Shown here in pieces: positions 51,506-52,487 of a DNA stretch of 64,000 nt (positions within the stretch are counted from its first letter, which is position 1; every line of letters begins with the position of its first letter). Both the position numbers and the translations under genes were made by a program. This stretch comes from Pedobacter sp. (GTDB lineage Bacteria; Desulfobacterota; Desulfuromonadia; Desulfuromonadales; Syntrophotaleaceae), in contig JBFWJC010000004.1 in the NCBI GenBank assembly GCA_050253415.1, positions 284,536-348,535 on the forward strand, given 5' to 3'. Under the pieces are notes generated by a model. The model was not told the origin of the DNA. It saw only the letters and a program-made list of their open reading frames with translations, and did not search any database.

Positions 51506-51727
51506 ATGAGCCGATTAAAACGCCTATTCATCAAACTCACACCGTTTAAGGCCATAGCCAAGGACGTGAGGGAGTGCGGACTAGAGATTAAACAGTTGAA
51601 AATTAGTGGGAATGGTGTTGTTTCCACTAGCTTTGATGCTATCTTGCGTACGGATTCAGCCAAAAAACAAATCAGAGCACTAAAAGACGTGAAGTTGAAA
51701 GACCATAGAGCGTCTGCTTTAGGTTAG
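51506..51727 (+). CDS. Small basic hypothetical protein (island cargo)
   Basis: 73 aa; downstream of the promoter and GA tract; 4 nt before the next gene. Confidence 0.7.
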   Translation: MSRLKRLFIKLTPFKAIAKDVRECGLEIKQLKISGNGVVSTSFDAILRTDSAKKQIRALKDVKLKDHRASALG

Positions 51728-51731
51728 CAAA

Positions 51732-52487
51732 ATGAATCTGGCAGGCATCACTCTAATCCCCCTCCTGTCAGGCTACCTTTTCGCTGTACTGTTTCCCCCT
51801 TCTAGTTATTACGCGGCTCGAGAGGAAGGCCACAAGCTTTACTTTCGAGCCGCTTTTTATGGTACGTTTCTCTTTCTATGCTCTATTTTTCTAAATACCA
51901 TCCTATCAAACTACTTCCCAAAAATAACTTTAGCGATATGGAATTATGTTTTTTATTTCGTATCACAATCTTTGGGTGAATATATAAAAAACGAAAAAGA
52001 GGTTACAAGCCTAATATTGCTAAATTTTTGGTGCCTAAGCCTTGCTATGTTTTTTGGAGCAGTTTTCAACACAAACAAACGATTTAAGTTTTTTATCTAC
52101 CAGAAAGCAATACAATATGATGATATTGAAATAATCATAACAAGAGCAGTTAAGGATTGTATGCCGATATCAATTTCAATGAAAAATAGAAAGGTTTATG
52201 TTGGCTTTGTTAACAATACCATTGACCCAAAGGAAGACAGGAAAGACATTAGGATATTGCCGCTTTTAAGTGGCTACAGAGAAAAGGAAGAAAACAAAAT
52301 TATTTTTACCACAAATTACTATTCAATATATGATTCCAAAGATAACCACATACAACATTTAGCCCCCGAAACTTTTGAAATAGCATTTCCCCTTTCCGAA
52401 GTTCAATCTTTAAATCTTTTTGATATTGACGTTTACAATAAATTCAACGAAACATGCCCTCAGAACCAGCTAGACTTTGGGTTTTAG
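51732..52487 (+). CDS. Hypothetical membrane protein (island cargo)
   Basis: 251 aa; hydrophobic N-half; soluble C-half with KNRKVYVG and PLLSGYR; AT-rich. Confidence 0.82.
   Translation: MNLAGITLIPLLSGYLFAVLFPPSSYYAAREEGHKLYFRAAFYGTFLFLCSIFLNTILSNYFPKITLAIWNYVFYFVSQSLGEYIKNEKEVTSLILLNFWCLSLAMFFGAVFNTNKRFKFFIYQKAIQYDDIEIIITRAVKDCMPISISMKNRKVYVGFVNNTIDPKEDRKDIRILPLLSGYREKEENKIIFTTNYYSIYDSKDNHIQHLAPETFEIAFPLSEVQSLNLFDIDVYNKFNETCPQNQLDFGF

Follow-up and report, generated by a model that had tools for sequence, protein, structure and literature searches.

On a 64,000-nt stretch of a Pedobacter sp. genome (assembly GCA_050253415.1, contig JBFWJC010000004.1, forward-strand positions 284,536–348,535; hereafter the window), two adjacent genes at 51506–52487 form the cargo of a small genomic island and encode a basic protein of 73 amino acids (aa) and a 251-aa protein predicted to reside in the membrane. 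Our comparative analysis indicates that this pair is a real, conserved and mobile two-gene module, and its genomic context argues for it as a plausible candidate for anti-phage defence or superinfection exclusion. Support for a defensive function comes from cargo slots that elsewhere hold defence genes, from a sporadic distribution and from an independent prediction; judged from this context, an anti-phage role stands at about an even chance.

Architecture and linkage of the gene pair

The small partner gene (51506–51727, + strand) and the large gene (51732–52487, + strand) are separated by 4 nt (CAAA), exactly as an initial annotation, made from the DNA letters alone, had placed them. A word-indexed homology search with the large protein returned 74 homologues at E ≤ 1e-3 among 432 candidates (best non-self match 5.7e-84), all of them named 'hypothetical protein' at their source, and because of this conservation both open reading frames (ORFs) can be regarded as genuine genes and not as chance ORFs. 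By its profile match, the large protein is a member of phrog_3630 in PHROGs v4 ('unknown function'; E 4.6e-42, 145 bits, residues 8–241 against profile positions 7–251 of 274). A profile search of 1.84 billion cluster representatives (50% identity) retrieved 3,559 at E ≤ 1e-3, 2,891 at E ≤ 1e-10 and 1,212 at E ≤ 1e-30, and among the 150 cluster matches listed nearly all were 230–330 aa long and aligned over their full length. Neither window protein matched a family in Pfam (E ≤ 0.1), PADLOC or NCBIfam, in agreement with the initial annotation, which had recognised none. An NCBIfam SAVED match to the large protein (E 0.0096; 15.5 bits where the cut-off is 33; residues 69–126 in the transmembrane region) was set aside as noise.

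Hydrophobic segments span residues 1–24, 36–59 and 90–113 of the large protein, with a weaker helix at 62–84. Where three to four transmembrane (TM) segments had first been counted, three proved to be conserved family-wide and the fourth fell away, the 62–91 region being devoid of a hydrophobic 17-mer in 62 of 63 homologues. Loop 1 is always 18 residues long and carries more basic than acidic residues (K+R 3.8 versus D+E 1.7), the segment following TM3 has a K+R of 5.7, and the variable loop leans towards acidic residues (K+R 2.4 versus D+E 3.0). Because of this charge bias of the loops, the predicted topology places the N-terminus outside, and loop 1 and the C-terminal domain in the cytoplasm. 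The residues invariant in the 63-sequence alignment (G158, P177, S180, G181, R183 and Y196) all lie within that C-terminal domain, and L11, G14, R30, F38, K154, Y156, V157, Y182 and F238 are nearly invariant. Both peptides singled out by the initial annotation, ISISMKNRKVYVGFV and ILPLLSGYR, are present and constitute the most conserved motifs of the family.

An AlphaFold2 (AF2) model built on the same alignment (mean predicted local distance difference test score (pLDDT) 93.3, predicted template modelling score 0.79) consists of helices up to residue 141 followed by a small beta domain, with the C-terminal elements modelled as a helix at 131–141 and strands at 146–150, 154–162, 172–183, 190–195 and 217–229. 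Fold searches, which had been proposed as a check, lent substance to the beta-rich soluble domain described earlier: Sm/LSm proteins filled the top rows of Foldseek, with E values from 1e-3 to 6e-3 and a TM-score by target of 0.5–0.67, and a VIA search independent of Foldseek was headed by Sm, LSm and Hfq chains, matched as whole chains to residues ~128–232 with Z scores of 5–7.3. SpLsm4 superposed over 60/60 residues at a root-mean-square deviation of 2.4 Å (Z 7.3), and yeast SmF reached a Z of 7.0. A structure search of the Atlas listed LSM and Sm_like clusters, with clusters bearing DUF6338 among the nearest neighbours. On these modelled likenesses, whose scores are modest, an Sm/LSm-like fold of the C-terminal domain is a reasonable but not strong assignment.

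The small protein is indeed basic, as first described (isoelectric point (pI) 10.4; K+R 17 versus D+E 7), and contains no hydrophobic segment. Its AF2 model comprises a beta-hairpin, a short helix and a long helix (core pLDDT 88–94, overall 73.5), and the conserved core spans ~40 residues with one invariant glycine. A Foldseek search with this model gave no match (best E 0.7). A word-based homologue search returned the protein itself and nothing else, so that the family, which has no word-sharing homologues, was recovered only through synteny and an iterated profile.

Linkage was assessed across 105 related loci, in part found by a search built on a 14-sequence alignment: 20 come from species-representative genomes, 80 are the best of the 189 confirmed IMG/VR hits, four are annotated phage records and one is from a genome of the same order. 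The set is redundant; clustering the large protein at 70% identity leaves 41 clusters, one of which holds 40 loci. By an iterated profile seeded with the window protein, 88 of the 105 loci have a small-protein homologue immediately ahead of the large gene. As a control, the profile was run against 7,496 ORFs of at least 40 aa from the same loci and yielded 87 matches, all upstream-adjacent and none elsewhere. The gap between the two genes has a median of 0 nt across the 88 loci, and in 39 of them the genes overlap by 1 nt. Five of the remaining 17 loci are cut by a contig end, in nine the small ORF is divergent but keeps the hairpin pattern (E 0.03–1.9), two give marginal matches (E 0.005 and 3.2), and at the last, L020, the place directly upstream is taken by an integrase, with no candidate small ORF.

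This gene organisation bears on the toxin–antitoxin (TA) module that the initial annotation had offered alongside defence, in which a membrane toxin would be held in check by a labile upstream antitoxin, perhaps one that also represses the operon; such an addiction module would overlap in function with abortive infection. A small gene in first position, co-orientation, tight coupling and near-obligate linkage are typical of type II pairs, the pair is carried by plasmids, prophages and islands, and the small protein is basic. Complex prediction adds weak support for binding between the two proteins: the ipSAE score was 0.58 in each of three runs, against 0.00 for the best of three controls, with a partner pLDDT of 61–65, contact agreement of at least 82% and no interface given. 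The band of ipSAE ≤ 0.60 holds 18 of 157 solved complexes, yet also both of the mismatched pairs that passed. Against a TA module stand the lack of any TA family match in Pfam, NCBIfam or PADLOC and the size of the large protein, a three-TM protein of some 250 aa with a conserved, folded cytoplasmic domain that is unlike known membrane toxins, which to our knowledge are short peptides. The small protein, moreover, has no recognisable DNA-binding fold (best Foldseek E 0.7), and in P2 hotspots the pair keeps company with defence cargo, away from genes for partition or maintenance. The TA proposal thus keeps its gene order and a weakly predicted interaction, with no other specific support, and we consider it quite unlikely.

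Genomic contexts and a candidate anti-phage role

Prophages, islands and IncC plasmids carry the family, whose range takes in Gamma- and Betaproteobacteria and extends beyond them. The pair follows gpA and DinI and precedes the portal gene in P2-like phages (Salmonella SEN4/SEN5, Klebsiella ST15-OXA48phi14.1 and E. coli prophages), and this gpA–portal interval is defined as a hotspot of anti-phage systems by Rousset 2022 (PMC9122126). At one locus, L109, the pair is the sole cargo of the hotspot; in some others it is followed by a 69-aa ORF and bSEFIR (E 6.9e-103), and in some E. coli prophages the genes that come next encode a membrane protein of 138 aa and a TIR protein. E. coli phage 500465-1 carries the bSEFIR unit at 98% identity and lacks the pair, so the two are independent, separable cassettes. 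Table S5A of the same study (PMC9122126) mentions the E. coli small protein 193 times and the large protein 60 times, accompanied by SieB, PIN_12, DUF262/DUF1524 or TIR, or alone.

The membrane and TIR genes appear to form an arrangement of their own. At L108 (7385–8404) they encode a 138-aa multi-TM protein and then a 200-aa TIR protein, with weak PADLOC matches to SAVED_TIR (5e-11) and PDC-S66 (5e-10), and this looks like a separate cassette downstream of the pair.

Distribution is sporadic. The pair was found in 52 of 5,426 complete E. coli genomes and on 30 of 72,556 plasmids, mostly Salmonella IncC plasmids on which it lies beside an AAA ATPase and mer genes. Within the class to which the window belongs it occurs in 2 of 401 genomes, with a single copy in the window's own genome; the contig of the other hit (L007/L110, from the same order) ends 190 nt past the gene with no tRNA nearby, which makes its context uninformative. 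Contexts were annotated for 41 representative loci, taking as many as two flanking ORFs (≥ 90 aa) per side. Six of these are P2 hotspots, seven adjoin an integrase, one lies between lambda-type terminase and portal genes, and four lie between the virion-morphogenesis and protease genes of Mu-like heads, as morons.

An independent machine-learning prediction points in the same direction. The 280-aa E. coli orthologue of the large protein, WP_000212611.1 (~27–29% identical), is classed as 'Predicted novel defense gene' with a mean log-odds of 5.10, above the strict threshold of 4 (DefensePredictor, PMC13092281, Table S5). That entry is a prediction alone and does not list the small partner, whose counterpart in the E. 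coli P2 prophage is WP_000094764. The accession is absent from the other nine supplementary files of that paper that were searched (PMC13092281), so the orthologue was apparently not among the 118 cloned units. Full-text literature searches found no paper naming WP_000212611 and no record of its testing.

Not every context speaks for defence. Insertion sites inside Mu-like and lambda-like structural modules, a membrane location and the lack of an enzyme or nuclease domain would also suit a lysogenic-conversion or fitness moron whose membrane role is not defensive, acting for example as a regulated ion or solute channel, in envelope stress or in the exclusion of conjugative DNA instead of phage. 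TM helices followed by an Sm-like beta domain recall MscS-type channels. Neither Pfam nor NCBIfam, however, gave a channel or transporter family match, MscS chains were not among the 50 structure-search rows shown, and the pair turns up repeatedly in a locus that turns over defence systems, with an orthologue whose DefensePredictor log-odds is 5.1; we think a moron of this kind unlikely. Its near-confinement to temperate phages and integrative elements, and its position adjoining the repressor in phage C5a, could instead reflect a part in the life cycle of the carrying element, for example in lysis timing, induction or DNA entry. One would expect a gene with such a part to be common and to keep a constant position, whereas the pair occupies unrelated positions in unrelated phage types, is also found on IncC plasmids, is present on a 5.7-kb island without lysis or structural genes, and reaches only ~1% of E. 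coli genomes, though P2-like prophages with other hotspot cargo are common. A life-cycle role therefore seems highly improbable.

At least one defence-type neighbour was seen at 8 of the 41 loci, an association for which no background rate was computed and which is thus not an enrichment. These neighbours are BrxA, a type I restriction endonuclease (HsdR) and SoFic at L014, a type IIG restriction–modification (RM) system at L095, PDC-S24 at L028, PDC-S42 at L075, a PLD-helicase fragment at L018, a Schlafen-type helicase at L015, SIR2_2 at L070 and Schlafen AlbA_2 at L010. Orphan phage methyltransferases and HTH/M78 regulator pairs were left out of this count, as were housekeeping look-alikes of PADLOC models (RpoD for MzaA, ClpB for PDC-M37B/DolB, a sigma-54 activator for RtcR and IstB for DrmD). 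Several results weigh against a defensive role for the pair. At six of the 41 loci (L010, L011, L019, L021, L023 and L025), housekeeping genes lie on one side or both and no marker of a mobile element is present. The proposed PADLOC check came back empty: PADLOC-DB v2.0.0 (5,027 models, 2023) gave no model match at E ≤ 1 for either window protein or for 10 homologues of either, and the E. coli pair had none at E ≤ 1e-8. Neither the curated Table S5B nor the tested-system tables of the hotspot study contain motifs of the pair (PMC9122126; string search validated), so its authors, as far as those tables go, did not treat the pair as a system. The Sm-like match is modest, VIA Z scores below 8 lying in the range that the tool calls common. 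Finally, the promoter attributed to the pair by the initial annotation was not recovered, the scan showing no + strand sigma-70 consensus site upstream of 51506.

Defence or exclusion, as originally suggested for the pair, is in keeping with its mobile cargo status, its hotspot context and the independent prediction; what these supply is association, from which the anti-phage phenotype is predicted.

The host island and the upstream region

In the window, the pair is the AT-rich cargo of a 5.7-kb island that lies between direct repeats and is integrated at a tRNA-Thr gene with anticodon CGT (51071–51146, + strand, ARAGORN). The left repeat copy, attL (51102–51151), is the 3' half of this tRNA gene, and the right copy, attR (56826–56875), is a displaced partial copy of its 3' end. 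Both belong to repeat family D1, whose copies extend over 51102–51164 and 56826–56888 with the first ~50 nt identical, and the genome holds exactly two copies of the D1 50-mer. A second repeat family, D2, places TTTGCTAACA twice in the left arm (51198–51231) and twice in the right arm (56668–56701; 91% identical), the latter overlapping the start codon region of the integrase gene. Since the integrase carries an Arm-DNA-bind_3 domain, these double motifs at both island ends are probably arm-type integrase sites.

The GC content of the pair is 0.366, below the 0.445 of the island and the 0.538 of the window, and the pair lies on the + strand against six island core ORFs that are all on the − strand; both the AT-richness and the opposed orientation reported for the pair were thus borne out. 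Reading through the convergent core, these ORFs encode a 120-aa protein of no credible family (52808–53170), a 155-aa protein that serves as the marker of the island family (53340–53807; weak phrog_186 match, DnaD-like, E 7.6e-4), a cysteine-rich 62-aa protein with a homologue in the related island L134 (53808–53996), an AlpA-type excisionase or regulator (54227–54472; PF05930, E 4.4e-8; phrog_2790), a 242-aa protein of no credible family (54574–55302) and the tyrosine integrase (55422–56672; Arm-DNA-bind_3, Phage_int_M and Phage_integrase domains). A scan placed an intrinsic-terminator-like hairpin between the convergent cargo and core (52660–52681, − strand). Its stem has 9 pairs, six being GC, its T-run is on the − strand, and it may act on the + strand as well.

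Of 401 genomes of the class, 22 encode relatives of the 155-aa core protein, in islands next to tRNA genes, and five loci carrying them were examined. L132 and L133 share the layout of the window's island, with a distal integrase and a convergent cargo block adjoining the tRNA, which is tRNA-Arg in L132 and again tRNA-Thr(CGT) in L133. The L132 cargo (7908–9829) includes an HNH protein that matches type IV methyl-directed restriction models (E 1.1e-20) and has three small ORFs of no known function around it, and the L133 cargo slot holds three ORFs of no known function. A contig of run X3, from a ~90%-identical island relative, joins 51233 to 52545 and skips 51234–52544 (1,311 nt, the cassette with its upstream DNA). 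The joint has a depth of 98.9 with 57 nt on its shorter side, and joints at less than 95% likeness can be spurious; it is a hint that the pair is a swappable cassette of the island.

Two further islands with the 155-aa core protein, L136 (6230–9533) and L135 (6694–8268), also encode a second tyrosine recombinase and an HTH_17 protein matching 'mad1', and L136 additionally encodes a type I methyltransferase matching 'mad2'. This arrangement is possibly MADS-like or a shufflon-type RM system.

The cassette-specific DNA upstream of the pair (51234–51505, + strand), which the X3 contig lacks, is presumed to be regulatory. The sigma-70 scan found six sites in the region against 4.9 expected from shuffles, no excess; by eye, TTCACC (51350) and TATGAT (51375) stand 19 nt apart, a spacing outside the rule of the scan. 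Immediately before the small gene lies a perfect (AG)19.5 microsatellite (51460–51498, + strand; Tandem Repeats Finder), which ends 7 nt ahead of the ATG and is the sole dinucleotide run of at least seven units in the 4.10-Mb genome. None of the 105 related loci carries one. Contigs of run X1 break at 51452–51508, as would be expected anyway from a 39-nt repeat exceeding the assembler's word, and all runs over the island are contigs, uninformative on expression or on the length of the AG tract. Positioned at the ribosome-binding region, the (AG)19 tract could switch the cassette on and off through slippage, giving phase-variable expression, or it could alternatively be a recombination scar. 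Elsewhere in the window, at 25724–26431, a 217-nt tandem repeat of 3.2 copies (96% identity) is unrelated to the pair.

Proposed mechanism and relation to known systems

We propose that the pair is a translationally coupled cassette, carried by conjugative plasmids, temperate phages and small integrative islands, that protects the carrier cell, and so the element itself, against incoming phages, a proposal that we hold to be evenly balanced between true and false. The 251-aa protein would sit in the inner membrane with three TM helices and its N-terminus out, leaving loop 1 and the Sm-like domain in the cytoplasm. Sm proteins form rings, and by analogy with other proteins of this fold the Sm-like domains may oligomerise into a ring, which would draw the TM helices together as a pore or as an assembly that perturbs the membrane. 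The small basic protein may bind the cytoplasmic face of this assembly and either keep it off or report infection. A phage cue would then release the block; the outcome would be abortive infection through a leaking membrane, or superinfection exclusion, with genome entry blocked. As a specific pore-and-partner mechanism this is tentative, and on balance we doubt it. A bolder version, in which the pair would be the first membrane-anchored Sm-fold immune effector, is a long shot: here the ring surface formed by P177-x-x-S-G-Y-R, G158 and Y196 would bind a nucleic acid or nucleotide cue, candidates being an injected phage genome end or a phage transcript, and the ring together with the small partner would gate the three-TM pore, to which AG slippage could add switching.

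The logic proposed for this cassette has a precedent in lambda RexAB, a prophage-encoded two-component abortive infection system of one membrane and one cytoplasmic protein. Like RexAB, the pair is prophage-borne and is proposed to collapse membrane function upon infection; the sizes are reversed, however, with the membrane protein the larger one here, and the likeness proposed is one of logic. A further comparison is the TIR system of phage AC1, which we take to be Rst_2TM_1TM_TIR in DefenseFinder. That system occupies the same gpA–portal hotspot (Rousset 2022), whereas the window island has no TIR gene and the pair occurs alone elsewhere.

Known families capture the pair in part. The phrog_3630 entry is unannotated and omits the small partner, the two-gene unit and the Sm-like fold. 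The resemblance to Sm, LSm and Hfq proteins lies in an N-terminal helix and a strongly bent, antiparallel sheet of five strands that superpose on Sm proteins in the model; the differences are an identity of 5–18%, the lack of a Pfam LSM match (E ≤ 0.1) and the tethering of the domain to a three-TM anchor. DUF6338 (PF19865, gathering cut-off 26.5 bits) appears to be a remote relative of the C-terminal domain. The homologue P0015 scores 25.1 bits against it, the neighbouring Atlas clusters have 15–32% of members carrying DUF6338, and the HHpred row for WP_000212611.1 gives DUF6338 at 94.3% probability over residues 131–240 in the DefensePredictor supplement (PMC13092281). The window protein itself has no DUF6338 match at E ≤ 0.1, nor at E ≤ 0.001 in the genome search, and two bona fide DUF6338 genes of the class miss the family profile and have no small-partner homologue beside them. 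A literature search combining Sm-like, transmembrane, anti-phage and prophage found no paper, and one for DUF6338 gave a single unrelated paper.

No current defence catalogue has a counterpart to the combination of three TM helices, an Sm-like domain and a partner with a core of ~40 residues. Should the pair be defensive, a large family of 3,559 clusters would join the anti-phage repertoire, and a recurrent 'hypothetical + hypothetical' unit of the E. coli P2 hotspot, so far passed over, would be accounted for. The E. coli orthologue makes the pair directly testable in a laboratory strain.

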